A DNA stretch of 64,000 nucleotides from Candidatus Falkowbacteria bacterium (GTDB taxonomy: Bacteria > Patescibacteriota > Patescibacteriia > Patescibacteriales > UBA12075). The stretch lies in contig JAZDLN010000011.1 of assembly GCA_043801965.1 (NCBI GenBank), positions 44,511 to 108,510 on the forward strand, written 5' to 3'. The notes beneath the pieces are model-generated. The model saw only the letters and a program-made list of their open reading frames with translations. It ran no database searches and was not told where the DNA came from. A program made the position numbers and the translations under genes. This document shows, in pieces, positions 2,197 through 49,008 of this stretch (within the stretch, counting starts at the first letter, position 1; each line of letters starts with the position of its first letter).

Positions 2197-2345
2197 TGCC
2201 TTTTGGACTTGCCCCGTCATCCGACGGGGCACCGGGCCGGATGACCCGGTGAACCATCGACCCCAGGCTTATGAGGCTTGTGCTCCCTGCCGGCAGGCGG
2301 GTAACCAACTGCCTGTCCCGCCAAAGCGAAGCGTCAACGGGGAGT
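2197..2345 (-). pseudogene. decayed CAU-anticodon paralog of the adjacent tRNA-Ile with three GC-rich insertions
   Basis: Core GAGCACAAGCCTCATAAGCCTGGGGTCGATGGTTC is near-identical to the tRNA-Ile(UAU) body. Insertions lie in the D region (30 and 17 nt) and T-loop (40 nt). The acceptor stem is no longer complementary. Confidence 0.55.
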
Positions 2346-19762: not shown

Positions 19763-19948
19763 ATGATTATGACAGAAAATAGATTAGAGATTATATTATT
19801 ACTCGAAACCATTCTTCTTTTTATCGTACTGGCCGTCGGCCCCTATATGCAGTTTACCGCCTTCTACGCTTTAACCATATCGATTACAGCTCTATTGAGC
19901 CTTACGCTGGATCTCTGGGCGCGAATGCCAAGTATAAATATTAGCTGA
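19763..19948 (+). CDS. small two-TM hypothetical protein
   Basis: 61-aa hydrophobic ORF directly after the previous gene. aaaaagga lies upstream. Confidence 0.3.
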   Translation: MIMTENRLEIILLLETILLFIVLAVGPYMQFTAFYALTISITALLSLTLDLWARMPSINIS

Positions 19949-20067
19949 CCCAAACTATCAAGGAACCCAGTATTAAAATCTATTTTCTGACCGCGCAGGC
20001 AAATTTCACTTAACCATTGTCTTAAAATTAGGCAAAAAAATCTTTAAAAGTAGCTCATTTTTATCCC

Positions 20068-20094
20068 AAGGAACCAACCACGGTTCCTTTTTTA
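20068..20094 (+). terminator. rho-independent terminator
   Basis: aaggaacc-aaccac-ggttcctttttt. Confidence 0.65.
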
Positions 20095-20117
20095 TTGGTT
20101 CGCCGTTTCCCTCCTTT

Positions 20118-20217
20118 CAAGCCCTCTGCCCCGGCTTACTTCGTTCGCCGACCCCTCTCCGGTACCGGAGAGGGGTGCCGAGCGCAAGCGAGGCGGGGAG
20201 AGGGTTTGTTTAGAAAA
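20118..20217. repeat. GC-rich ~100-nt palindromic element, copy 1 (GGAGAGGGG family)
   Basis: aagccctctgccccggcttacttcgttcgccgacccctctccggtaccggagaggggtgccgagcgcaagcgaggcggggagagggttt. Self-complementary about the ggtacc centre. Confidence 0.8.
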
Positions 20218-20222
20218 TAAAT

Positions 20223-20585
20223 TTATCTATCCATTTCTCTTCTTATTTTCCCTATTACCGCCTGAAGGTCATCTATAACTTCGGCATTGGTAAACCTCAT
20301 AATTCTATATCCCTGCCCGATAAAAAATTCTTGCCTAAATTCATCATACTCCTTGATTTCCTCTTTATTATGTATTCCTCCGTCAACCTCAATAATCAAT
20401 CTTTTGGAAAAACAACAAAAATCAACGATATACCGATAAGAGCCGAAACAAAACGGAACCTGTCGTTTGAATTTTACGTCTAAAAAATTATTTCTAACCC
20501 TTTGCCACAGTAATTTTTCCGCTGGTGTCATTTTCTTTCGTAAAATTTTTGCGATATCGTATATGTTGGTCGGATATTTATTCAT
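20223..20585 (-). CDS. DUF559 (Vsr/restriction-endonuclease-like fold) protein
   Basis: LRKKMTPAEKLLWQRVRN...FKRQVPFGSYRYIVDFCC...LIIEVDGGIH...D..R...F...GYRIMRFTNAEV, a typical DUF559 pattern. Confidence 0.8.
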   Translation of the reverse strand: MNKYPTNIYDIAKILRKKMTPAEKLLWQRVRNNFLDVKFKRQVPFCFGSYRYIVDFCCFSKRLIIEVDGGIHNKEEIKEYDEFRQEFFIGQGYRIMRFTNAEVIDDLQAVIGKIRREMDR

Positions 20586-20632
20586 ATGTTATTACGGGCA
20601 CGGCTTTCTCTCTAATCCTCCACTCGCCTTTC

Positions 20633-20732
20633 GAGCCCTCTCCCCCGGCTCTCTTCGTTCGCCGACCCCTCTCCCTGCCTACCGGTAGGCAGGCGGTACC
20701 GGAGAGGGGTGCCGAGCGCAAGCGAGGCGGGG
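20633..20732. repeat. GC-rich palindromic element, copy 2 (same orientation as copy 1, carries a nested insertion)
   Basis: Matches copy 1 arm for arm except for 20 extra nt at the apex. Confidence 0.8.
20675..20694. repeat. 20-nt mini-palindrome nested in the apex of copy 2
   Basis: ctgcctaccggtaggcag(gc). An 18-nt perfect palindrome inserted between ctcc and ggtacc, relative to copy 1. Confidence 0.75.
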
Positions 20733-20769
20733 AGAGGGTTTTGTTTAACCGGAGAGGGGGCAAGCGTCT

Positions 20770-22593
20770 CTATTCTACGGTAACACTCTTCGCTAAATTA
20801 CGGGGTTTATCCACATCCCGATTATTTAATGCCGCTATATAATAAGCGAAAAGCTGGAGCGGCACGGCGGCAAGTATCGGCGTAAGCATCTCCAGAGTCG
20901 GCGGTATGTATATGACGTCATCGGCGATAACCTCGATCTCATTGCTGCCCTCGGTCGTTATCGCGATAATGCGGCCGTCACGCGATTTTATCTCTTCCAT
21001 ATTGCTTAGATTCTTTTCATAAACCGAATCCCGGGGCGCGATAAAGACGCTCGGAAAATTCTCGTCGATCATGGCCAGAGGCCCGTGCTTCATCTCTCCG
21101 GACGCGAAGCCTTCGGCGTGGATATAGGATATTTCCTTTAATTTCAGGGCTCCCTCACGGGCAGTTGGCTGGTTGTATTTCCGCCCCAGATACGCGAAAT
21201 GCTCCGCGTCGCGGTATTTGGCGGCGATAGCGGCGATATAGTCGCTTTGTTTTAAAATTGTTTCAATTTTAAAAGGCAAAAGCTTTATTTCTTCAAGTAT
21301 TTCCCGGGCTGACCCTTGGGTCATGCGCCTTTGCCGTCCCAGGAGAACCGTCAAAAGGGCCAGGATCGTTGTCTGAGACGTAAAAGCCTTGGTAGAAGCG
21401 ACGGAAATTTCCGGACCGATATGATTGTAGATGCCGGCATCAACTTCGCGCGCGATCGTAGATCCGACCACATTCACGATTCCCAGGGTAAAAGCCCCCC
21501 TGGCCTTCGCCTCGCGTACCGCCGCCAACGTGTCGGCCGTCTCTCCCGACTGGCTTACCGCCAAAACGGCCGTAGACGGACCGAGCGCCGGAGAGCGGTA
21601 GCGGAATTCGCTCGCCCACTCAACTTCCGCCGGCACCCCGGCGTGCTCTTCGAGCATATATTCGCCCGTGAGTCCGGCATGATAAGCCGTACCGCAGGCT
21701 ACGATCACCAGCCGGTCTATTTCCCTTAATTTGTCGGAAATAGCGTCAAAGCCGCCGAATTTAACCAAACCATCTTCGGCGATAACCCTTCCTCTGACGC
21801 TGTCTTCTATCGCCCGCGGCTGCTCAAATATCTCTTTGAGCATAAAATGCGGATAACCGCCTTTTTCGGCGCGTTCAATATCCCATTCAATCGAGTGGAT
21901 ATTTTTTTCTATGGCCCGCGCCTGGCCGTCGAATATCCGATAACCGCTGTCTTTTATTTCCGCGATTTCGCCGTCCTCCAGGTAAATAACGTCCCGGGTA
22001 TGGCGGATTACGGCGGCCGCGTCCGAGGCCACGATCATCTCTTCCGGACCGATGCCGAGTATGAGCGGACTGCCGCGCTTAACGACCACGATCTTATCCG
22101 GTTCATCGGCGTGGATAATCGCCAAGCCGTAAGCCCCTTCCAGCATGCCGACCACGGCCGTAACGGCCGAAATTATATCGCCGTCATAAACTTCTTCTAT
22201 CAGGTGGGGTATTACCTCGGTATCGGTCTCGGAAATAAATTCATGCCCGCGGTCCCGGAGGCTGGCCTTTAGGGCCTGGTAATTTTCAATAATGCCGTTG
22301 TGGACAACCCTGATCTTGCCGGAGCAATCAAGATGGGGGTGGGCATTTTCTTCCGTGGGTCGGCCGTGCGTGGCCCAGCGGGTATGGGCGATCCCGACCC
22401 GTCCGGCGATCGGACGACCGGCGATCTTCTTGTCTAATTCGCAGATCTTCCCGACGGCTTTAAAATCGGAAAAGTCTCCGTCCCAAACGGACAGCCCGGA
22501 GGAATCATAGCCCCGGTATTCTAATTTTCTTATGCCATCCAAAAGGATGGGCGCGGCCTCTTTCCGGCCGACATAACCCACGATGCCGCACAT
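20770..22593 (-). CDS. glmS: glutamine--fructose-6-phosphate aminotransferase (isomerizing)
   Basis: True start taken at MCGIVGYVG (catalytic Cys2, ATG at 22591-22593). Two SIS domains with GTAYHAG and SQSGETADT. C-terminus KPRNLAKSVTVE. The track ORF carries a spurious 34-aa N-terminal extension. Confidence 0.92.
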   Translation of the reverse strand: MCGIVGYVGRKEAAPILLDGIRKLEYRGYDSSGLSVWDGDFSDFKAVGKICELDKKIAGRPIAGRVGIAHTRWATHGRPTEENAHPHLDCSGKIRVVHNGIIENYQALKASLRDRGHEFISETDTEVIPHLIEEVYDGDIISAVTAVVGMLEGAYGLAIIHADEPDKIVVVKRGSPLILGIGPEEMIVASDAAAVIRHTRDVIYLEDGEIAEIKDSGYRIFDGQARAIEKNIHSIEWDIERAEKGGYPHFMLKEIFEQPRAIEDSVRGRVIAEDGLVKFGGFDAISDKLREIDRLVIVACGTAYHAGLTGEYMLEEHAGVPAEVEWASEFRYRSPALGPSTAVLAVSQSGETADTLAAVREAKARGAFTLGIVNVVGSTIAREVDAGIYNHIGPEISVASTKAFTSQTTILALLTVLLGRQRRMTQGSAREILEEIKLLPFKIETILKQSDYIAAIAAKYRDAEHFAYLGRKYNQPTAREGALKLKEISYIHAEGFASGEMKHGPLAMIDENFPSVFIAPRDSVYEKNLSNMEEIKSRDGRIIAITTEGSNEIEVIADDVIYIPPTLEMLTPILAAVPLQLFAYYIAALNNRDVDKPRNLAKSVTVE

Positions 22594-26603: not shown

Positions 26604-26741
26604 ACAAGCGTGTCATTTGAAAATTCTTTTCCCTGTTTATACTTTACAATTTCGGAGTAAAAAAAGCAATATCGCTAAATATAATAGTAAAAAAATTAAA
26701 ATAATGGTATAATAAATTTAGCTTTTATAAATTACATATTT

Positions 26742-27473
26742 ATGAATAAAAAAAATATTAGCCTAAAGAAAAAAATATTTTTGCTCTTGATGATCGGGGT
26801 AATAATTCTTATCGTAATTTTATGCGCTTATCTCTTAATGTCGAAACTGGCCGAAAATAATATTACCTATAAATCTTTTCCCGCGGCCGAACCGCCGAAT
26901 ATCAAACCTAACGATCGGGAACAAATTGATTATCAGTTGCAGAAACATCAATTATATGATGACTGGAAATGCGTAAATAATAATTCGACTGACGCGATCC
27001 CGTGCGATGAAAATGATCTTGAATACACGGGAGAAGAGGGAGAATGGATTAAATTCGTCGATACGGATATATCAAATTTTAAAAAAATTTTTCCTTCGCT
27101 GGCTTCCGGCGTAGTTATGAAGGACGCGAGAACCGGCTTATTTTGGTCTGACACCGTCGGACAAGCGGCAAATAATCTCGACTATTGCAAAAAATTCGAG
27201 CTTGACGCGGACGGAGACGGCAATGATGAAACCGGATGGAGACTTCCCACTCACAACGAATTGATTCAGGCATACATCAACGGATCTGCCAACAACCTGC
27301 CCAATCCGTATACTTTTTGGTCTTCTTCTATTTTTAAACGACCGCCGATGAAATACTATAATATTAACGGTATGGATGATAATTCATTCGTATGGTTTGC
27401 CAACCTATTTAACGGGGCCAGCAACCTGGCCAATAAGAATTCCAAGCTGTATATCCGTTGCGTGCATGAATAA
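26742..27473 (+). CDS. membrane-anchored DUF1566 (Lcl C-terminal, C-type-lectin-like) protein
   Basis: N-terminal TM helix. GLFWSD...GWRLPTHNELIQAY...FWSSS pattern. Confidence 0.65.
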   Translation: MNKKNISLKKKIFLLLMIGVIILIVILCAYLLMSKLAENNITYKSFPAAEPPNIKPNDREQIDYQLQKHQLYDDWKCVNNNSTDAIPCDENDLEYTGEEGEWIKFVDTDISNFKKIFPSLASGVVMKDARTGLFWSDTVGQAANNLDYCKKFELDADGDGNDETGWRLPTHNELIQAYINGSANNLPNPYTFWSSSIFKRPPMKYYNINGMDDNSFVWFANLFNGASNLANKNSKLYIRCVHE

Positions 27474-27496
27474 ATTTTATAAACTAAATCTATAAT

Positions 27497-28327
27497 ATGA
27501 TTAAGTTCGGCAGAATCAATATTACTAACAACAATAAACGGACGTTTTGGTATTTTATGTTATTGTTGTTATGCGCGGCCATTCTCTTTGACACTAATAT
27601 ATTTTTAGCGTCCGCTAAATTCAATAAACGTCCCTTTATTTTAAAAGAAGTGCCTAGATTTTCAGTGTTTTATTGTATGGAATACAAATCAGACACAAAT
27701 GACGGCCGCTGGGAGAAAATAACGGACGGGAATACGGAAAACGCTCTTGTCGGTTCGGGTGTTGTCGTTAAAGATAAAAAAACCGGACTTTACTGGTCAG
27801 ACGCATATGATTCCGACAAAGACGGCAATCCGGACATCATAAGCAATGAATTCCAAATCGTTTTACAAAACGGAGGAAACGGTTGCGATAATGCGGATAT
27901 AAACGCTGGCAATTGCGACGCCGGAAAATTCCAAAAAAAGGGCAAGGCGATTGAACATTGCGAAAATCTTTTATTGGACGCGAACGGCGACGGCGTTGAT
28001 GAAAATGATTGGCGTCTGCCGACGCAAAAAGAATTGATGCAGGCGTATCTTGACGGGTCGAACACCAATCTTCCGAATTCCGGCCATTTCTTCTGGTCCG
28101 CCACCGAAAGCTCTTATGCTTTAGCCGATATGGCCTGGTATGTCGATTTGGGATCCGGCTTGTCGTTGGAAGAATATAAACGATATGGAAATTATTCAAA
28201 AATGGAAAAACTATACGACAGCAATGATATAAATTACAGAAAACAAATCGATACTTTTGTCTGCGATTCTATATATAATTCCGGCGGCATTGAAATTCCG
28301 CTCGTTTATGCCCGTTGCGTCCGTTAA
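27497..28327 (+). CDS. membrane-anchored DUF1566 protein, tandem paralog
   Basis: GLYWSD...DWRLPTQKELMQAY...FWSATE, ending ARCVR like its neighbour's IRCVHE. Confidence 0.65.
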   Translation: MIKFGRINITNNNKRTFWYFMLLLLCAAILFDTNIFLASAKFNKRPFILKEVPRFSVFYCMEYKSDTNDGRWEKITDGNTENALVGSGVVVKDKKTGLYWSDAYDSDKDGNPDIISNEFQIVLQNGGNGCDNADINAGNCDAGKFQKKGKAIEHCENLLLDANGDGVDENDWRLPTQKELMQAYLDGSNTNLPNSGHFFWSATESSYALADMAWYVDLGSGLSLEEYKRYGNYSKMEKLYDSNDINYRKQIDTFVCDSIYNSGGIEIPLVYARCVR

Positions 28328-28368
28328 CCGCAAAACACAATAAACGTCCTGAAAATAAGAAATAAAAT

Positions 28369-28398
28369 AACCGCTGAAATTTATCAGCGGCTTTTTTA
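28369..28398 (+). terminator. rho-independent terminator
   Basis: aaccgctga-aattta-tcagcggctttttt. Confidence 0.7.
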
Positions 28399-28482
28399 TT
28401 TTAATTTATCTGCGTACCTGTTAATTTCGGAAAGTATTGAAAACCATTTTAAAAAAAGTTTTCAAATAAAAAAACACCATTG

Positions 28483-31867: not shown

Positions 31868-31975
31868 AGCTGGCAATTAACTACTAATAAAATTAGTTGT
31901 TAATTGTTAACTGTCAATTGTCCCGGCCAAAGGCCGATCCCTGCCTACCGGCAGGCAGGCGCCTTTGGCGGAAAA
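31868..31975. repeat. AT-rich CAATTAA-type palindrome followed by nested GC mini-hairpins
   Basis: ggcaattaactactaataaaattagttgttaattgttaactgtcaattg, then ggccaaaggcc...ctgcctaccggcaggcagg...gcctttggcgg. Confidence 0.6.
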
Positions 31976-36108: not shown

Positions 36109-36224
36109 GTGGTTATGTTAGATTTTTAAAATTTTATTGGCTGTTTATATTATAGCATAAATAGCGAAAAAAAATAGAATTTGGATTTTTAACGGCTAGC
36201 TCTCATCCTTGTTGCGCCAATAAA

Positions 36225-36315
36225 TACCCTCTCCCCCGGCTCGCTGCGTTCGCCGACCCCTCTCCGGTACCGGAGAGGGGAGCCGAAGCGAAAGCGGGGG
36301 CAGGGAGAGGGTTTG
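36225..36315. repeat. GC-rich palindromic element, copy 3 (solo)
   Basis: ataccctctcccccggctcgctgcgttcgccgacccctctccggtaccggagaggggagccgaagcgaaagcgggggcagggagagggtttgt. Confidence 0.8.
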
Positions 36316-36348
36316 TATTGTAGGGGCTACGAACGTTTTTCAACTCAA

Positions 36349-36428
36349 AAACCCTCCCCAGACTTGGGGAGGGTGCGATCCTGAGCCGCGCCGACGGAGA
36401 GCGGGTGGGGGAAGAGCGGGGAGGGGTG
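36349..36428. repeat. degenerate GC-rich hairpin cluster related to the GGAGAGGGG family
   Basis: aaaccctcccca-gact-tggggagggt, then gacggagagcgggtgggggaagagcggggaggggtg. Confidence 0.5.
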
Positions 36429-36641
36429 AATAAATAAAAACCGCAAAATTATCTGGAATTTCGGTTTAAAGCCGAACATGAAAGAATATTCGGCCGGGAA
36501 GATTCATGCCGGGCGCTGATCATCGGATATGACAGGAAGTCCAGCAATTACCGGGATAAAAAACTTTTGGCTTATACTTTAATCAACCTAAGATACTTTT
36601 GCGGTAAGTCGCAATGACTTCAATTTAAAAAACATATCACA

Positions 36642-37985
36642 TTACAGAAATAATTTTTTGGCTTTTTCGGTTATATAATAATATATAGTTTTCCCCTCTT
36701 TGTTTTGCTCAAGAAATCCAAGCTTTAATAATTCTTTCAAGTCCTTTATGGCTGTTTTATTAGCTACCTGAAAAACATTCATGTGTATCCTTATACTGGT
36801 CTTCTCGCTTGGCTCCCCGTATAAAAATTGCAGTAATTTTACCTGTCTTTCATTAAAACCATGGCTCATTTTACCGGCTCTGCCCATAGTCGAATTTATA
36901 GCCGCTTGCTTGTCCAGATAATCCTTAAATTCCTCGACGGCCTGCTCTATTTTTTTCGTATGGTAGTCGATAAAATACGTTAAATCATTATCGTCCTGCT
37001 CGCTATAAACATAAGCCATGGTATATTGGACCGGGGATTTTTTGATTATTTTCGAAATAGGCAAATAAGCGAAGGCCCAGTATTTCTTCTGGAGCAGGTA
37101 CCAATAAAAAAGCAATCTGGCTATTCTGCCGTTACCGTCAGTAAACGGGTGTAAATATCCAATCCAAAAATGCAGCATAATAGCCTTTATGACCGGATGG
37201 ACGAAAAGCGTTTCCGATTCATCGTTGACGAATTTTATGAATCTGTTCAATTCTTTTTTAACAAACGGCATTTCAGGGGCTTTGTGGTAGACGATACCGC
37301 TTGCCTTGTCAGTAACGAATATTTCGTCCTGCTCGCTCCTGAGCTTCGGTTTTTCACCATCCGGAGTCAGGGTATCCTTCGTTATCATTCCATGCAATTC
37401 CATTAACAAATCCAGATCCATGTGCCTGTCTTTATAATCCTCTTCGATCAATTTCATGGTGGTGTAATTATTCAATATCATCTGCTCCGATTCATTTTTG
37501 GGCTTTCTGCCCTCTTTTAAAAATTGTTTGGCTATTTTTCTGCTCGTGCTCGCTCCTTCGAGCTGGGAAGAGGCGATCGCCTCTTCCATTATCCCCCTGG
37601 AAATAAGCCTTTGCTTTTCCTGTTTGTCCGTCTCTGCTTTGGAAGAAAATAACTCACCACCGGTGTTTAAATCGATTTCATGAAAAAATTTTTCCAACTT
37701 CGGCAGTTTTAACCACGTAAAAATTTTTCCGTTTTCTGATTTTATCGGACTCGGAAATGATCTCGCTTTTCTCATGAGTTTTAATATCTGCCATAACTCT
37801 TCCCGGGAATATCCCCGCGGAATCGGCTCCTTATATTTTAATTTATCCCAGGAAATGTACGGATTAAAAGTGTTTTCCAAAAATAAAAAAGAATCACCCT
37901 GCTGACCGTTAAAAAATCTGGAAATTACTTTTTCCTTATTTACCTTTGATAAATCAGGTTTTTTTATTGAATAAAATTCCGCCAT
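36642..37985 (-). CDS. Fic/DOC family protein with C-terminal wHTH
   Basis: Fido motif HPFTDGNGRIARLL. Confidence 0.85.
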   Translation of the reverse strand: MAEFYSIKKPDLSKVNKEKVISRFFNGQQGDSFLFLENTFNPYISWDKLKYKEPIPRGYSREELWQILKLMRKARSFPSPIKSENGKIFTWLKLPKLEKFFHEIDLNTGGELFSSKAETDKQEKQRLISRGIMEEAIASSQLEGASTSRKIAKQFLKEGRKPKNESEQMILNNYTTMKLIEEDYKDRHMDLDLLMELHGMITKDTLTPDGEKPKLRSEQDEIFVTDKASGIVYHKAPEMPFVKKELNRFIKFVNDESETLFVHPVIKAIMLHFWIGYLHPFTDGNGRIARLLFYWYLLQKKYWAFAYLPISKIIKKSPVQYTMAYVYSEQDDNDLTYFIDYHTKKIEQAVEEFKDYLDKQAAINSTMGRAGKMSHGFNERQVKLLQFLYGEPSEKTSIRIHMNVFQVANKTAIKDLKELLKLGFLEQNKEGKTIYYYITEKAKKLFL

Positions 37986-37999
37986 ATATTTTGAATGTA

Positions 38000-38091
38000 A
38001 TTACACTTATACTACACTCATATTACATCGATACTATGAATCCGTCAATAGGAGTGTAATTACACTTATATTACACTTATGTTACGCACAA
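38000..38091. promoter_or_regulatory. two blocks of three 11-bp direct repeats (iteron/operator-like) upstream of fic
   Basis: attacacttat actacactcat attacatcgat (38000-38032) and attacacttat attacacttat gttacgcacaa (38059-38091). Confidence 0.5.
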
Positions 38092-38204
38092 TAAATTACT
38101 AAGAACACAAAAATTTCAGAAACGCTTATAGTCTCTCGTATTAATATATCTGGCTTATATCTGATTATCAGATTAATCGAGACTACAAAAAAATAATTAT
38201 AAAT

Positions 38205-38230
38205 AAAAGCGCGCCCAGGGGCACGCTTTT
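38205..38230 (-). terminator. terminator downstream of pilT
   Basis: aaaagcgcgcc-cagg-ggcacgctttt. Confidence 0.5.
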
Positions 38231-38311
38231 ATTTTAGCTTAAAAAATCAATAATCTTAAAATTTCCGGTTGTATATTACCCTCTTCCGGTTTCATGCTTC
38301 ATGTTTCATGA

Positions 38312-39367
38312 TTATAGAAACTTGAACTTCTCCAGTAATTCCGGACTGATCATGTGCGCCTGGGCGGTCTCCTTCGAGATCAGTTTTTCTTTGTATAATC
38401 TCTGCAGATCCTGATCGATCGAGACCATGCCTTCTTTCGAGCTCGTTTCAATGACCGTCTTTAACTGGGCCGATTTCCCTTCGCGGATAAGATTCGCGAT
38501 CGCGACCGTGTTGATCATGATCTCGCGGGAAGAGACGCGCCCGCCGTCGATCTTAGGGAGTAACCTTTGGGAGATGACGCCCGCCAGGGTCGTCGAGAGC
38601 TGCATCCGGACCTGGTTTTGCTGGTGCGGCGGGAAGATATCGATTATCCGGTCGATCGTCTGGGACGCGTTATAAGTATGGAGCGTGGCGAGGACTAAGT
38701 GCCCGGTCTCGGCCAGAGTGATCGTCGTGGCGATCGTTTCAAGATCGCGCATTTCGCCGACCATGATCACGTTCGGATCCTGCCTTAAAGCGTGCTTTAA
38801 GCCCTCGGCGAAAGAGACCATATCGCTTCCGAGCTGGCGCTGGATAATAATGCTCTTCTTGGGCTTGAAGAGATATTCGATCGGGTCTTCCAGGGTTATG
38901 ATATTGCAGAACCGGTTCTCGTTTATGTAATTGACCATAGCGGCCAGGCTCGTCGATTTGCCGCAACCGGTCGGGCCGGTCAAAAGGATAAGCCCCTGCT
39001 GAAGGTCGAGAAGTTTATAGATGACGTTGGGCATCTCGATCTCTTCCAGGGTCGGCATCTTATCGTTGATCACGCGGGCCACGAGGCCGATATTCCCTTT
39101 TTCAAAATGCAGGTTTATCCGGAAGCGGAAATGCTCGATCTCAAAGCCGATATCAAGCTCCCGTTCGCGCAGGAACTTTTCTTTTTGGGCCTCGTTTAAG
39201 AGAGAGTATACCATCTGCTCCATGTCCTTGCCCGCGAGGCTTTTCTTTTCCTGGATATAGGTAAGATTGCCGTCGATCCGCAGCGCCGGCGGCAGGCCGA
39301 CGACCAGGTGAAGATCGGAGGCCTTTTTGTCCGCCGCGATCTGGAATAGATCTTTAATATTTGTCAT
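38312..39367 (-). CDS. pilT: type IV pilus twitching-motility ATPase PilT
   Basis: Walker A GPTGCGKST, conserved DPIEY..., MVGEMRDLETI and LVLATLHT boxes. Confidence 0.9.
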   Translation of the reverse strand: MTNIKDLFQIAADKKASDLHLVVGLPPALRIDGNLTYIQEKKSLAGKDMEQMVYSLLNEAQKEKFLRERELDIGFEIEHFRFRINLHFEKGNIGLVARVINDKMPTLEEIEMPNVIYKLLDLQQGLILLTGPTGCGKSTSLAAMVNYINENRFCNIITLEDPIEYLFKPKKSIIIQRQLGSDMVSFAEGLKHALRQDPNVIMVGEMRDLETIATTITLAETGHLVLATLHTYNASQTIDRIIDIFPPHQQNQVRMQLSTTLAGVISQRLLPKIDGGRVSSREIMINTVAIANLIREGKSAQLKTVIETSSKEGMVSIDQDLQRLYKEKLISKETAQAHMISPELLEKFKFL

Positions 39368-41719: not shown

Positions 41720-42099
41720 ATTATGATCGTCGATTTGTGAATGTCGAATAGCCCGTTAGCTTGAACATTTCCAAATCAGGACATTTTATTATTAAAATTA
41801 CTTCTAATATACCTAATATAACGGAAAATTTATAAAAAGTCAAATGTTCCCGAATTATTAGTAAAATTACGGATATTCCCAGGATTTTATATTTCTCATT
41901 CTTCTTGCTTGTTGGCGCTTTTATCTCCCGTCAATCTAAATAATAATCAATAATACCTTCCATATTTTTCATAAGGCTAAATCATTATTTTTTTATAAAT
42001 AATAATTGACATTTTAAGAAAAATTATGTAATATTTAAAATTAAAAACAGCTTTGTTTTATTATTGTTCATCACAATCTAGCACAAACAGGGAGGTAAT

Positions 42100-42801
42100 A
42101 TGAACACGATTTGCGAAATTATCGTTTGGATCAGCAATAATATACTGTTGTCGCTTTTGTGGTATACCGTATTTTCGGTGCTGGCCGGACTCGTATGTTC
42201 CGTCCTGGTGATGGTAAAACACGAAGACGGGCGCTGGGGGGGCATCAAAGAAGACAGTCTTATTCTTAAAATTTTCTACGGTGTGAATTTATTTATGCTT
42301 TGGTGTGATTTTAATATTACTGTCCCGGACAACAGCTGCAGGCTAATCAGAACCTTTATTCTTTCGTTCCTCTTGTCCCCGCTGATTATTTTTTTCCACC
42401 TAATGATGTTCCTGGTGCATGGGCTTGTGGTTGGATTGATAGGAATGATTTTCGTAATGGGGCGCGTCCCTAAAACCGCAAAAATCCCCATAGCTTGGAA
42501 AAAAGAGGATTATTTTTCTCTGCCTTTCTATTTGAGTCCCGCTTTCCTATTTTTTCTAAGTTCGTTTTACTGGGGCTGGGAATTCTGGCGAAAAATTATC
42601 CAGGGCATGAGCGCCGGTTTAACGGGGGGAGACGAAGCGTTCCGGGCCATATTCGCTTTTTTGACGTATTTTGTCGGGACCGTTTTGTTCCTGGTGCTCA
42701 TATATCTCGTTTACAAATTTTTTCCACGCGAGAAAACAAAAACCGTCGTAGAATCACTGAAGAATAAATACTGTATTAAATTCATTTCACTCAAAGAATA
42801 A
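42100..42801 (+). CDS. hypothetical polytopic membrane protein
   Basis: 233-aa ORF with at least 6 hydrophobic helices. RBS gggagg. Confidence 0.55.
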   Translation: MNTICEIIVWISNNILLSLLWYTVFSVLAGLVCSVLVMVKHEDGRWGGIKEDSLILKIFYGVNLFMLWCDFNITVPDNSCRLIRTFILSFLLSPLIIFFHLMMFLVHGLVVGLIGMIFVMGRVPKTAKIPIAWKKEDYFSLPFYLSPAFLFFLSSFYWGWEFWRKIIQGMSAGLTGGDEAFRAIFAFLTYFVGTVLFLVLIYLVYKFFPREKTKTVVESLKNKYCIKFISLKE

Positions 42802-42861
42802 AACGACGCTTAAGTTCGAAAAATATAATATTATTAATCTGCTCTTTTTGAAAAATAAAAC

Positions 42862-42890
42862 GCAGGGTCAAATAACCCTGCTTTTTGTTT
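42862..42890. terminator. bidirectional terminator
   Basis: gcagggt-caaata-accctgcttttt. Confidence 0.65.
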
Positions 42891-43115: not shown

Positions 43116-44312
43116 TCAATAAATGAACATCGCGTCGCCGTAACTATAGAAACGGTATAAAGACTTTACGGCATGAGCATAGGCTCTGTCAATGTTGTCT
43201 TTGCCCGCGAAAGCCGAAACCAGCATTAAAAGAGTCGATTTCGGCAGATGAAAATTCGTGATCATGACATCGACGATCTTGAACTCGTAGCCGGGATAAA
43301 TAAATATGTCTACGTTTTTTTGAAAACCCTTAAATTGTTTTTCGTATTGAGTGTTTTGAAATTGATTATTGATTGGATATTGGATATTGGATATTGGATA
43401 TTCGGAAACCATAGCCTCAAGCGTGCGGGTCGAAGTGGTGCCTACGGTAATAATGCGTCGTCCCTGATGCTTCGCTAAATAAACGTTAGCCATGGTTTCG
43501 GCCGATACCTCGACCCATTCCGCATGCATTTTGTGATCAGTGATGATTTCCGCTTTGACCGGCGCGAAGGTGCCCAGACCCACGTGCAGCGTGACATATT
43601 CTATTTGTACGCCCTTCGCTTTTATCTTCTCCATCAATTCCGGCGTGAAATGCAGTCCGGCGGTCGGCGCCGCCACCGATCCGGTCTTATTTTTATCCGC
43701 GTAAATTGTTTGATACGATTTCTCGTCATTAATCAATTCGTTACGCGTTACGCGTTTTGCGTTACGCGAAATGTACGGTGGCAGCGGCGTCTGCCCGATT
43801 TTCTCCACGATCTTCATCATCTCCTCGCCCGCCTTATTGAATTCAACGGTAAAAGTACCGTCGCCGTTATTTTTTATTGCCAGCGCCTTAAGGCCGCCGT
43901 CAAATTCCACTTCTAAACCCTCTTTGCGCCGATGTCCCCCAACCAGGCAAATCCAGCGATCTCCCCTCGCCCGCGGCGAAGCCGGGGGAGAGGGGTCGGG
44001 GGTGAGGGCATGCACCAGAAAAACCTCAACACGCCCGCCCGTACCCTTCCGCTCCCCGATCAAGCGCGCTGGAAAAACTTTGGAATTATTCAAAACCAAA
44101 ACATCGCCGGTTCGCAAATAACCGACGATATCATAAAAATACTTGTCTTCAATTCCAGGCGCTCCCACCCCCTCTGTATCTCCCCCTCCGGCAGGGGGAG
44201 AAAAACGGCGTAATACCAAAAGCCGCGAGTGGTCCCGCGGTTCTACCGGCTCCTGAGCGATAAGCTCTTTGGGCAAATTGTAATCAAAATCGCTTAACTT
44301 CACATAACGCAT
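43116..44312 (-). CDS. queA: S-adenosylmethionine:tRNA ribosyltransferase-isomerase, carrying four in-frame repeat-derived insertions
   Basis: LSDFDYNLPKELIAQEP, PLPPYI, VAAPTAGLHFT, VTLHVGLGTF, ITVGTTS and NFHLPKSTLLMLVSAF...FYSYGDAMFI motifs. 398 aa versus the ~350 typical. Confidence 0.9.
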   Translation of the reverse strand: MRYVKLSDFDYNLPKELIAQEPVEPRDHSRLLVLRRFSPPAGGGDTEGVGAPGIEDKYFYDIVGYLRTGDVLVLNNSKVFPARLIGERKGTGGRVEVFLVHALTPDPSPPASPRARGDRWICLVGGHRRKEGLEVEFDGGLKALAIKNNGDGTFTVEFNKAGEEMMKIVEKIGQTPLPPYISRNAKRVTRNELINDEKSYQTIYADKNKTGSVAAPTAGLHFTPELMEKIKAKGVQIEYVTLHVGLGTFAPVKAEIITDHKMHAEWVEVSAETMANVYLAKHQGRRIITVGTTSTRTLEAMVSEYPISNIQYPINNQFQNTQYEKQFKGFQKNVDIFIYPGYEFKIVDVMITNFHLPKSTLLMLVSAFAGKDNIDRAYAHAVKSLYRFYSYGDAMFIY

Positions 44313-48705: not shown

Positions 48706-48777
48706 TGCTCTCGGTTGGAATCGAACCAACATTACAAGTTCCGGAAACTTGCGTCCTATCCATTGAACGACGAGAGC
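48706..48777 (-). tRNA. tRNA-Arg (anticodon CCG)
   Basis: Reverse complement GCTCTCGTCGTTCAATGGATAGGACGCAAGTTTCCGGAACTTGTAATGTTGGTTCGATTCCAACCGAGAGCA. Anticodon loop TTCCGGA. Confidence 0.9.
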
Positions 48778-48791
48778 GTTTTTATCATTGT

Positions 48792-48892
48792 ACTTGCGTC
48801 CTACTTGCCCGCCGAAGTCCCGACGCTTCGGGACGCAGGTGGGTCCATTGTCCGCCAAAGGAGGATCAGCCTCTGGCTGAAACGACGAGAGC
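48792..48892 (-). pseudogene. tRNA-Arg 5'-half copy 1 (positions 1-31) with 30- and 40-nt hairpin insertions in the D arm
   Basis: acttgcgtccta[40 nt]tccattg[30 nt]aacgacgagagc is collinear with 48749-48777. Confidence 0.6.
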
Positions 48893-48912
48893 ATAAAATA
48901 TTATATTGTAAA

Positions 48913-49008
48913 TGCGTCCTACTTGCCCGCCGAAGTCCCGACGCTTCGGGACGCAGGCGGGTCCATTGTCCGTCAAAGGCGGGGAGCCTCTGGCTGAAAC
49001 GACGAGAG
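48913..49008 (-). pseudogene. tRNA-Arg 5'-half copy 2, tandem duplicate of copy 1
   Basis: Same architecture about 120 nt further on, with a few substitutions (ggtggg to ggcggg, gaggatcagcc to gcggggagcc). Confidence 0.6.

Follow-up and report, generated by a model that had tools for sequence, protein, structure and literature searches.

The small DUF559 nuclease gene behind glmS in the DNA analysed here, a stretch of 64,000 nucleotides from Candidatus Falkowbacteria bacterium (the window), is on balance probably one copy of a widespread selfish cassette that combines such a gene with two repeats of the BoxC/PIT/triplex-motif class. Repeats of this class (BoxC/PIT/TMECO) have been known from E. 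coli since 1992 and are present in hundreds of genomes. The gene and the repeats travel together across phyla as a unit bounded by inverted repeats, and this unit can occupy either intergenic DNA or in-frame positions inside genes. Solo repeat units far outnumber the DUF559 gene. Furthermore, the gene and its repeat variant are both present in the lineage studied here, and neither occurs at the comparable sites of relatives that are approximately 88% identical.

The nuclease gene and its palindromes behind glmS

The features concerned, with positions counted from the first nucleotide of the window, are the following:
20068-20089, plus strand: terminator-like hairpin (GGAACC..GGTTCC and a T run) that bounds the variable segment on its far side, a right-hand anchor kept in relatives (L081-L086)
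20122-20204: palindrome A, on the 3' side of the gene, with the blocks of palindrome B minus its apex insertion; called by direct repeats, alignment and folding
20223-20585, minus strand: DUF559 (Vsr-like PD-(D/E)XK) nuclease gene, 120 aa, 33.9% GC
20636-20738: palindrome B, on the 5' side of the gene; called by direct repeats D1 and D2 shared with A, alignment and block scan
20675-20694: nested palindrome CTGCCTACCGGTAGGCAGGC at the apex of B, 20 nt, a gap in the A/B alignment and present in B only
20748-20759, plus strand: additional, incomplete arm ACCGGAGAGGGG located between the stop codon of glmS and palindrome B, the third member of repeat family D3
20770-22593, minus strand: glmS (stop codon 20770-20772), the upstream co-directional neighbour, whose homologs are 97-100% identical and annotated GlmS
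36227-36311: solo palindrome C, a long-spacer two-sided variant like A and B
36351-36428, plus strand: sub-family unit, with hairpin CCCTCCCC-AGACTT-GGGGAGGG, a 26-nt spacer and mirror block GGGTGGGGG
43976-44009, minus strand: canonical unit arm CCCTCACCCCCGACCCCTCTCC in queA, read in frame as HALTPDPSPP... within a variable QueA loop

To our knowledge, the very large orphan family DUF559 has a solved structure but no assigned role. The AT-rich, 120-residue DUF559 gene that an earlier note on this DNA had recognized is well supported, given that its product matches Pfam DUF559 (PF04480) over residues 9-118 with E=1.1e-31 (109.3 bits against a cutoff of 20.6). The only other Pfam match is MTES_1575, and a Pfam search of the protein revealed no transposase domain. 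Matches were also obtained to NCBIfam PRK09767 (E=3e-18) and, by sequence, to PDB 3hrl (E=2e-14). The AlphaFold model (pLDDT 89.9) aligns with 3hrl in Foldseek at E=1.6e-5, with a target TM of 0.82 and an rmsd of 2.6, and thus the modelled protein has the restriction-endonuclease-like fold of this solved DUF559 member. After 3hrl, the nearest characterized structures are I-Bth0305I (3r3p, the second-best PDB match) and the R2 endonuclease domain. Both of these are nucleases of selfish elements. In an alignment of 17 homologs, D55, E66 and H72 never vary and D68 almost never does, and from this conservation we infer a catalytic role for the four residues. As many as 19,567 clusters (50% identity) match the protein, no other homolog exceeds 55% identity, and few homolog records lie on phages (2) or plasmids (38). 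Only one DUF559 is encoded in the 64-kb window, and the 33.9% GC content of its gene compares with 45.2% for the window and 54% for glmS.

The palindromes are GC-rich, approximately 85-100 nt in length, and A, B and C are mutually 92-100% alike. The matching copies that had been noted around the gene are linked by two 48-nt direct repeats (100% and 92% identity), and a 39-nt arm is found twice, against a chance expectation of 0 matches. Alignment of the A and B flanks scores 132 in the direct versus 49 in the inverted sense, which confirms that the copies share one orientation. Computed DNA hairpin folds reach -34.1 (A), -38.6 (B) and -32.0 kcal/mol (C), with z values against shuffled sequences of -6.3, -5.1 and -4.3. 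The blocks of B run in the order mirror block CCCTCTCCCCC, 18-nt spacer, CCCCTCTCC arm, apex, GGAGAGGGG arm, 18-nt spacer and mirror block GGGGAGAGGG; all three copies carry CCCCTCTCC, GGAGAGGGG and GGGGAGAGGG, with a mirror block on both sides. A near-identical match to the nested 20-nt palindrome of B lies at 31940-31959. Palindrome A is approximately 5-15 nt from the stop codon of the DUF559 gene, and B is approximately 41-47 nt upstream of its ATG.

Elsewhere in the window, the solo copy reported 16 kb away corresponds to palindrome C. The nearby 'degenerate relative' placed at 36349-36428 does exist as a unit, but it is a member of a distinct sub-family rather than a degenerate copy. The element motifs seen within queA were likewise recovered, as the in-frame arm listed above. 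The 64 kb therefore hold three complete palindromes, together with a single unit of the sub-family and a single in-frame arm. No Rfam family matches the window hairpins or those of seven related loci, among them Pedobacter loci, at which the 'Pedo-repair' motif might have been anticipated.

Because a scan of positions 19900-20900 found neither a sigma-70-like promoter nor a minus-strand terminator-like site, transcription of the DUF559 gene probably reads through from glmS. Only on the plus strand are copies A and B followed by T runs, and neither copy has the hairpin plus transcribed-strand T run of an intrinsic terminator. A terminator or promoter role for the palindromes was accordingly rejected for this region.

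The cassette occupies the 3' intergenic region of glmS. It had been described as lying directly after the glmS stop codon; the two do adjoin, but a 31-nt gap that contains a partial motif separates the stop codon from the end of copy B. Relatives were located by searches with GlmS and an FG-GAP protein. The DUF559 gene is missing from those whose GlmS is 97-98% identical and whose gene order agrees with that of the window, and their gap between glmS and the next gene measures 232 nt versus 1031 nt in the window. At both comparable sites, relatives with approximately 88% DNA identity are without the gene and without this palindrome variant. Their glmS site carries another repeat variant, and 36 nt from the 3' end of glmS are duplicated there. 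The empty-site comparison that had been proposed for this locus therefore yielded relatives without the gene, but among these relatives there was neither a clean empty site downstream of glmS nor a target duplication. The site orthologous to solo palindrome C is occupied in relatives by a canonical one-sided unit, and the sub-family unit is kept at its orthologous site, where relatives have the same hairpin and mirror block with a 4-nt spacer.

Pairing of DUF559 with hairpin repeats across bacteria

That DUF559 and a palindrome might form a recurrent unit is upheld by a survey of 80 loci, which are the best tblastn matches to the window protein (a non-random, Bacteroidota-rich sample); the flank counts cover 78 loci. 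Inverted repeats that score at least 30 from flank to flank were present at 56 of these 78 loci versus 0 of 390 control pseudo-loci. GC-rich perfect hairpins within 150 nt of the DUF559 domain were found on the left at 50/78 and on the right at 49/78 loci, compared with 37/1165 control windows, and the distance from bracket to gene is short and fixed (median 33 nt). Nearly all stems read CCCYTCYCC/GGRGARGGG, and they are the same on the left and right of a locus and differ between loci. A mirror block 3 nt beyond the hairpin co-varies with the stem (CCCCTCTCC/CCTCACCCC, CCCTCCCC/CCCCACCC and CTTCCCC/CCCCATC), such that the tag of the units, CCYCANCCC, is a mirror of the stem. Stem and mirror block are kept alongside DUF559 in Patescibacteria, Proteobacteria and Bacteroidota. 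The flanks in the window are direct, two-sided palindromes, whereas the usual DUF559 flanks are inverted one-sided units.

The association can also be approached from the repeats. Among outward-facing unit pairs spaced 200-2000 nt apart in 1.3 Mb, 43 of 46 enclose DUF559. When loci were selected by hairpin only, DUF559 lay inside three of five such pairs; of the remaining pairs, one consists of two separate intergenic units on either side of atpA, and one contains 271 nt of non-coding DNA. Only 6 of the 120 loci selected in this manner include DUF559, and the remaining 114 (approximately 95%) are solo units.

A large share of the DUF559 copies, 42 of 80, are in frame within host open reading frames, where the hairpins are translated. 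The host genes encode LeuRS (two sites), IleRS (two sites), MetH (two inserts), RecG, PriA, ArgB, GHMP kinases and others, with restriction-modification proteins also represented, and some proteins carry tandem DUF559 domains. The junction peptides are encoded by the repeats (PLxPS..GEG), unlike intein blocks. The unit, which is present or absent among close relatives, is also inserted in frame in many unrelated genes. The LeuRS and IleRS sites are reused across many genera and one other phylum, and a LeuRS site is common to Bacteroidota and one Saccharibacterium. Divergence of the insert correlates with that of the host protein (r=0.53 for LeuRS, r=0.76 for IleRS), and in LeuRS the identity of the insert does not exceed that of the host, with the Saccharibacterium as a weak exception. 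The LeuRS and IleRS inserts, which retain intact catalytic residues, look to be mostly vertically inherited, and many copies look to be old residents.

The same pairing is accessible in E. coli K-12, where ycjD (b1289) has a literal TMECO/BoxC unit adjoining its 3' side. YcjD and N. gonorrhoeae NGO0050 (PDB 3hrl) belong to the same family as the window protein, with only approximately 32-38% identity to it, and both ycjD and the window gene have the same kind of unit on the 3' side. The 5' side of ycjD carries an AT-rich 17-bp inverted repeat, not a GC-rich unit. The test of co-occurrence and copy number that had been suggested for this pairing was run in E. coli and gave the predicted trend: genomes with the ycjD locus have a median of 20 units versus 5.5 for those without, in a comparison that spans few phylogroups and scores ycjD presence by a coverage proxy. 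Equal repeat numbers with and without ycjD, as indicated by megablast places, were overturned by a more sensitive search. The locus is present in 62% of E. coli genomes, and units persist in strains without ycjD (15 in O157:H7, 2-8 in phylogroup B2). The gap between fabI and sapF is occupied alternatively by ycjD and BoxC or by the eefRABCD operon, with no clean empty site.

The idea that the nuclease mobilizes the palindromes did not gain direct support. Target-site duplications were absent at the ends in the window and in a subset of loci with flanks, and among the 80 loci no DUF559 copies more than 94% identical occur in differing contexts, with similar pairs sharing their context. Approximately 95% of units are solo, and units persist in E. 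coli without ycjD. Recent transposition of the cassettes is not apparent among the sampled loci, as judged from their sequences. We found no paper that ties DUF559 or ycjD to BoxC/PIT/TM repeats or to flanking palindromes in a literature search that covered papers outside subscription, and the pairing of DUF559 with BoxC-type repeats appears to be new to the literature.

Possible mechanism and rival explanations

We envision that the DUF559 nuclease would recognize the folded or extruded repeat, whether a hairpin, a cruciform or a triplex, and nick or cut it. Repair of the break by copying another copy might then homogenize and spread the repeats, and from time to time the gene for the nuclease could itself be copied into a repeat elsewhere, with the repeat arms as homology. 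By analogy, the partnership would be homing-like or REP/RAYT-like and selfish. In keeping with it, Holder et al. (2015, PMC4666352) reported TMECO loci to be rearranged to an unusual degree and encountered no mobility gene in their vicinity. In the window, the AT-rich gene may have been acquired horizontally into a repeat that already existed downstream of glmS. We know of no strand-transfer or ligase activity in a nuclease of approximately 110 aa, which counts against the selfish cassette.

A bolder proposal, which we advance only tentatively, is that DUF559 might be the long-missing enzymatic partner of BoxC/PIT/triplex-motif repeats across bacteria, in a minimal selfish system that acts by cutting and break-induced copying and that has moved its gene into new repeats, including in-frame ones (LeuRS, IleRS, MetH). 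If true, this would provide an explanation for the instability reported at TMECO loci and a new case of selfish DNA colonizing coding sequence. Three problems would merge into one that can be tested, namely the origin and spread of the repeats, the role of DUF559 and the Bacteroidota inserts, given that many housekeeping enzymes in this phylum carry an unexplained insert of approximately 150 aa. The presence of ycjD beside a canonical BoxC in K-12, together with natural strains with and without the locus, makes the link directly testable in E. coli. Furthermore, if the nuclease is structure-specific for hairpin or triplex DNA, it could serve as a new type of reagent.

It seems appropriate to question whether a selfish cassette must be invoked at all. 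DUF559 might instead be a non-mobile host repair nuclease that processes hairpin or triplex repeats, for example at stalled forks, with its gene located among repeats owing to regulation or linkage. The Vsr-like fold and family are in keeping with such a role, as are the formation of triplexes by TMECO repeats in vitro and their association with instability (PMC4666352), the E. coli repeat count that follows the ycjD locus, and the old, conserved LeuRS and IleRS inserts with intact catalytic residues. However, we consider a repair function unlikely, since it leaves unexplained the symmetry of the bracket and its short, fixed distance from the gene, the occurrence of bracket plus gene in frame in a dozen unrelated genes, the tandem DUF559 domains in one protein, the foreign GC content and the patchy distribution both in E. 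coli and among the ~88%-identical relatives. Quite unlikely in our judgement is the possibility that the repeats are recombination-prone landing sites, with DUF559 as a passenger (such as an orphan restriction or defence nuclease) that is enzymatically unrelated to them. TMECO loci are indeed hot spots of rearrangement (PMC4666352), two different cargoes alternate in one E. coli gap, relatives of the window also hold repeats downstream of glmS, and certain embedded copies reside in restriction-modification proteins. Yet sites open to any cargo should enclose many kinds of genes, and what they enclose is overwhelmingly DUF559, even in the unbiased set, where it occupies three of five pairs; that stem and mirror block are conserved along with DUF559 in phyla as distant as Patescibacteria, Proteobacteria and Bacteroidota is also difficult to reconcile with a passenger.

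Another conceivable role for the hairpins is to keep expression of a toxic nuclease gene in check, as terminators, as attenuators or through effects on mRNA stability. Strong hairpins do flank the gene on both sides, and it lacks its own promoter-like site, but such insulation is very improbable given that the transcribed minus strand lacks both a T run and a terminator-like site, that the hairpins are translated within host reading frames at more than half of the loci, that most units are far from any DUF559 and that the hairpins match no Rfam family. Earlier work, as cited in PMC4666352, also describes PIT/TMECO units as being without promoter or terminator activity. That a small gene should by accident have come to lie between two copies of an ordinary intergenic repeat unrelated to it is scarcely credible. 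Solo units are common enough, at three to four in 64 kb, but chance juxtaposition is already contradicted because of the flanking hairpins, the flanking inverted repeats that are wholly absent from controls and the near-exclusive enclosure of DUF559 by unit pairs. The same pairing at ycjD of K-12, and relatives that have neither the gene nor the palindrome variant, also speak against chance.

Comparison with known repeats and mobile elements

Earlier papers on BoxC, PIT and triplex-motif repeats are reportedly those of Bergler (1992), Bachellier (1999) and Hoyne and Maher (2000). Judged by their sequence, palindromes A-C are two-sided, long-spacer versions of these repeats, and hence the palindromes do not form an uncharacterized class (PMC4666352). 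Both share three blocks (a C-rich arm, loop and G-rich arm followed by a mirror G-rich block), the core CCCTCNCCC/GGGNGAGGG, and a distribution of many dispersed copies that are mostly intergenic and at times form inverted pairs. The window copies differ in having an 18-nt spacer rather than the 3-nt loop of TMECO and in being two-sided around one hairpin. The literal pattern CCCTCNCCC-N3-6-GGGNGAGGG-N3-GGGNGAGGG has 0 matches in the window, and it does match beside K-12 ycjD and at 4 of 80 GTDB loci; by this pattern, the window units are a variant and not TMECO proper. With a spacer of 18 nt, intrastrand triplex formation by the window units is uncertain. Published work describes the units as always intergenic and without a linked enzyme (PMC4666352). 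In the present loci, by contrast, they lie on either side of DUF559, and in-frame translation of the units is frequent.

I-Bth0305I and other Vsr-like (EDxHD) homing endonucleases (PMC3239194, PMC2677866) resemble DUF559 in fold and in the E-x-D...H motif, and DUF559 similarly resides inside conserved genes at recurrent sites (LeuRS). However, DUF559 is not accompanied by an intron or intein (no Rfam match and no splicing motifs), its insert stays within the host protein, and it has flanking structured repeats that homing endonuclease genes lack. Rickettsia palindromic elements offer a parallel for the units in queA in the window and in LeuRS and IleRS elsewhere, but they are unrelated in sequence, and the present units have a far broader taxonomic range and a candidate partner enzyme. 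Like IS200/IS605 elements and MITEs, the DUF559 cassette is very small with hairpin ends, its non-autonomous copies outnumber those that bear the gene, and inverted repeats bound the gene-bearing form. It differs in having no transposase of a known family, no target-site duplication and no signs of recent transposition. Analogies to integron attC sites and to IS200/IS605 were rejected, as Pfam revealed no integrase or Y1 transposase.

The REP/RAYT (REPIN) system is a further precedent, and the analogy drawn in the earlier note suits the anatomy of the cassette. DUF559 is a PD-(D/E)XK Vsr-like nuclease whereas RAYT is an HUH Y1 (TnpA_REP) transposase, the DUF559-associated units have no GTAG/CGTC tag but one that mirrors the stem, and these units and their gene are also found in frame within coding sequences. 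In both systems, one nuclease-type gene is bracketed by two inverted 'tag plus hairpin' repeats, tens to hundreds of units are dispersed elsewhere, solo or paired, and many lineages keep a single, vertically stable copy of the gene. If the proposed partnership between DUF559 and its repeats is true, it would represent a second, mechanistically distinct counterpart of REP/RAYT.

The nuclease gene and its palindromes

The earlier note placed a DUF559 gene between two GC-rich palindromes, and its observation is borne out on every point: palindromes A (on the 3' side of the gene) and B (on the 5' side) have 48-nt arms in common that are 100% and 92% identical, where chance would give none. Folding z-scores against shuffled sequence are -6.3 for A and -5.1 for B, and the two copies do share one orientation (direct score 132 vs inverted score 49). 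The solo copy, C, was likewise recovered, as was the motif inside queA, which proves to be a translated unit arm. The features are:

20122-20204: palindrome A, GC-rich, bracketing the DUF559 gene with B
20223-20585, minus strand: DUF559 ORF, 120-aa product
20636-20738: palindrome B, GC-rich, bracketing the gene with A
36227-36311: solo palindrome C
36351-36428: sub-family unit, next after C
43976-44009, minus strand: canonical unit arm CCCTCACCCCCGACCCCTCTCC..., within queA (43116-44312), its in-frame translation, HALTPDPSPPASPRARGDR, falling in a variable QueA loop

A, B and C contain the same three blocks as the published repeat TMECO (a C-rich arm, a G-rich arm and a mirror block), but they differ in having a spacer module of 18 nt and a mirror block on either side. 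Since they do not fit the literal TMECO pattern, they are a variant of the BoxC/PIT/TMECO class, and the palindrome belongs to a known kind of repeat.

The apex of B holds a nested 20-nt palindrome, CCTGCCTACCGGYAGGCAGG (20675-20694), with a solitary near twin at 31940-31959 and a similar palindrome in the right flank of another DUF559 locus, L001. This palindrome appears to be a further small repeat, one that inserts into the loops of hairpins. Just past the tRNA at 48706-48777 are two near-identical segments of ~70 nt (48790-48860 and 48910-48980), ~118 nt apart and each with a hairpin GTCCCGACGCTTCGGGAC.

The window protein matches Pfam DUF559 (E=1.1e-31), the YcjD model NCBIfam PRK09767 (E=3e-18) and the solved DUF559 protein 3hrl (E=2e-14), on which its AlphaFold model (pLDDT 89.9) superposes with a TM of 0.82. 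Next among the structural matches come the homing endonuclease I-Bth0305I (catalytic domain), the nuclease domains of PvuRts1I/AbaSI and the R2 retrotransposon endonuclease domain; D55, E66 and H72 are invariant in 17 homologs. The GC content of the gene is 33.9%, compared with 45.2% for the window and 54% for the adjoining glmS. An NCBI Candidatus Falkowbacteria MAG encodes a 100% identical protein, and otherwise the two protein collections searched held no homolog closer than 55% identity.

Relatives retrieved by GlmS (97-98% identical) are collinear with the window over ~38 kb, at nucleotide identities of roughly 75-98%, typically ~88%. All of them have 232 nt separating glmS from the following gene, vs 1031 nt in the window, and DUF559 is absent from this stretch in every relative retrieved. 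Window and relatives have two anchors in common, GACGCYTGCCCC directly past the glmS stop codon and a terminator-like hairpin (20068-20089), between which the relatives have a short hairpin, a second copy (36 nt) of the 3' end of glmS, and a palindrome that stands alone and belongs to a different variant, CCCTCCCC-TAATTA-GGGGAGGG. Where the window has copy C, they have a canonical one-sided unit, CCCTCACCCCC-TTA-CCCCCTCTCCG..., and not the long two-sided form. At both comparable sites, therefore, the DUF559 gene and the A/B/C variant are specific to the window lineage. The hairpin and mirror block are 26 nt apart in window 36351-36428 vs 4 nt in relatives (L207 13400-13440), so units gain and lose the spacer module, TGC(C)GA...GAG(G)C; palindromes A, B and C contain modules of this type, as does the unit that follows glmS in the relatives.

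In the relatives (L082 11790-11895), directly after glmS, the duplicated last 36 nt of glmS carry 5 mismatches, and the duplicates flank a 35-nt piece containing the small hairpin GCCCCGTC-GGAT-GACGGGGT, which is near-identical to a hairpin at window 2210-2231. QueA of the relatives differs in sequence and is 10 aa longer at the variable loop, and a second variable loop has a repeated 'DATDRDAT'-like peptide. Window segments missing from the ~88%-identical relatives (26679-28459, 36179-38312 and 41932-42883) contain a pair of paralogous ORFs that look secreted (243 and 276 aa), a 233-aa ORF and, adjoining palindrome C, a putatively Fic-like ORF of 447 aa.

Repeats around DUF559 domains across phyla

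Because homologs from unrelated phyla have termini that resemble translated GC-rich palindromes (e.g. PLTPPIKGGE, SPIEGEG, NPSPQGGGE), we collected DUF559 loci from GTDB genomes, 80 in all, a Bacteroidota-rich set of the best matches to the window protein. Of 78 loci, 50 have a GC-rich perfect hairpin ≤150 nt to the left of the domain and 49 have one within that distance to its right, against 3.2% of equal-sized control windows in the same loci. Inverted-repeat scores of ≥30 between the 220-nt flanks were found for 56/78 loci vs 0/390 pseudo-loci from the same DNA, the controls for these flank tests including coding DNA. Almost every stem reads CCCYTCYCC...GGRGARGGG; left and right stems agree within a locus, while separate loci differ. 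A mirror image of the stem, usually 3 nt outside the hairpin, changes along with it. The usual order is mirror block, hairpin, ~33 nt, DUF559, hairpin, mirror block. At 13 loci, the window included, flanks align better direct than inverted, and in the window the flanking modules are complete two-sided palindromes.

Of the 80 loci, 42 encode a longer protein in which DUF559 and the repeat arms on both sides of it are read in frame. Most of these copies come from Bacteroidota; a Saccharibacterium and a Rickettsiales MAG contribute one each. The hosts and example intervals are:

LeuRS (two sites), IleRS (two sites), MetH (two inserts), RecG and PriA
Acetylglutamate kinase (ArgB), two GHMP kinases, an epimerase, a DNA methylase and a type ISP enzyme
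Examples: L008 3056-6280, L017 2009-5914, L007 1277-4792

Insert and host identities are correlated at the main LeuRS site (r=0.53, medians 53% and 63%), which indicates that these inserts, with catalytic residues retained, have descended mainly vertically. The same site has at least five different stem sequences, each perfectly paired; either the hairpin is selected or it is overwritten by the genome's own repeat family. Some representatives (P0298, P0314, P0318 and P0434) have two or three DUF559 domains per polypeptide, consistent with cassettes inserted beside or into one another.

We also searched from the repeat, scanning metagenome contigs for CCGACCCCTCTCC-N3-30-GGAGAGGGG. Although the pattern did not require a mirror block, an upstream CCYCANCCC was present in 91 of the resulting 120 loci. 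Only six contained DUF559 (five within 400 nt), and most units are therefore solo. About half of the 120 loci lie within long open frames, an upper bound given the spurious ORFs in GC-rich DNA.

The E. coli gene ycjD and the BoxC repeat

The DUF559 family has a member in E. coli K-12, ycjD. The stop codon of this gene falls in a CCCTCTCCC hairpin, and ~150 nt downstream is CCCTCGCCCCTCTGGGGAGAGGGTTAGGGTGAGGG, an exact fit to the published TMECO pattern. The family to which this sequence belongs occupies 19 places (median) in an E. coli genome. This repeat is BoxC, later named PIT elements and then the G/C-rich triplex motif TMECO. BoxC was reportedly first noticed upstream of envM (fabI), the gene adjoining ycjD. 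No paper in the searchable literature connects BoxC, PIT or TM with ycjD, DUF559 or any nuclease. The connection of a large orphan nuclease family to an orphan repeat known for 30 years is apparently new, and it is directly testable in K-12. TMECO has 23 copies in K-12, is found in >260 genomes and forms a triplex in vitro, and the authors report never having found a mobility function near it (PMC4666352).

Among complete E. coli genomes, 3378 of 5426 (62%) carry ycjD; elsewhere the fabI-sapF gap is filled by the ~7-kb eefRABCD efflux operon (PMC12817139), an alternative to ycjD with BoxC (L210, from K-12, and L211). The fabI-side breakpoint of this swap is within ~40 nt of the BoxC unit. In the K-12 ycjD-fabI interval (L210 4204-4420), ~45 nt from the 3' end of the ycjD coding sequence are repeated, apparently as the remnant of a second cassette that has decayed; the literal TMECO/BoxC unit follows, and upstream of ycjD (L210 4758-4802) is a perfect 17-bp AT-rich inverted repeat.

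The earlier note proposed testing whether gene and palindrome copy number go together. The trend was in the predicted direction in 60 evenly spaced E. coli records, with an end-to-end match of the ycjD-side unit as a proxy for locus presence: the median was 20 units in 38 proxy-positive records vs 5.5 in 22 others, in a comparison that spans few phylogroups and is phylogenetically uncorrected (Mann-Whitney p=4e-8). Records lacking the proxy match had 2-8 units in B2 strains (CFT073, 536) and 15 in O157:H7, and units clearly persist in E. coli without ycjD. In independent counts by Holder et al., strain 55989 has 29 units and IHE3034 has one (PMC4666352).

Possible routes of spread

The mobile element proposed in the earlier note is partly supported: the nuclease-palindrome unit is real and widespread, and its mobilization by the nuclease is so far an inference. 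The gene and its repeats make up one unit with inverted (or two-sided) repeats at its borders. Related genomes have gained or lost this unit, and it either tolerates being in frame within genes or is selected for it. Within a genome the variants are homogenised (A/B/C are 92-100% alike), and orthologous units in relatives differ. We lean towards the view that the nuclease cuts the repeat and that repair-copying spreads units and gene. The DUF559 nuclease would recognise and cut the extruded or single-stranded repeat, repair templated by another copy would spread and homogenise units, and occasionally the gene would be copied in between the arms of a solo unit. Such copying would explain the unit arms flanking the gene, the tandem DUF559 domains and the instability of TMECO loci. 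It does not explain the first arrival of solo units at new sites, and neither target duplication nor a recent jump was seen in the loci and relatives analysed.

The protein might instead be a host repair nuclease, which we judge unlikely. TMECO has been associated with local rearrangement (PMC4666352), and a gene that is passive cargo in recombination-prone pads seems somewhat less probable still. The repeats might act as expression insulators, an improbable role to our minds; TMECO is without promoter or terminator activity (PMC4666352). The DNA fetched (1.3 Mb) has 46 unit pairs that face outward at a spacing of 200-2000 nt; 43 of them enclose DUF559, and such pairs enclose it in three of the five hairpin-selected loci that have them, the other two enclosing atpA and 271 nt of non-coding DNA; mere chance juxtaposition is scarcely credible. 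Solo units greatly outnumber the nuclease-bearing unit, and in this they resemble REPs relative to RAYTs.
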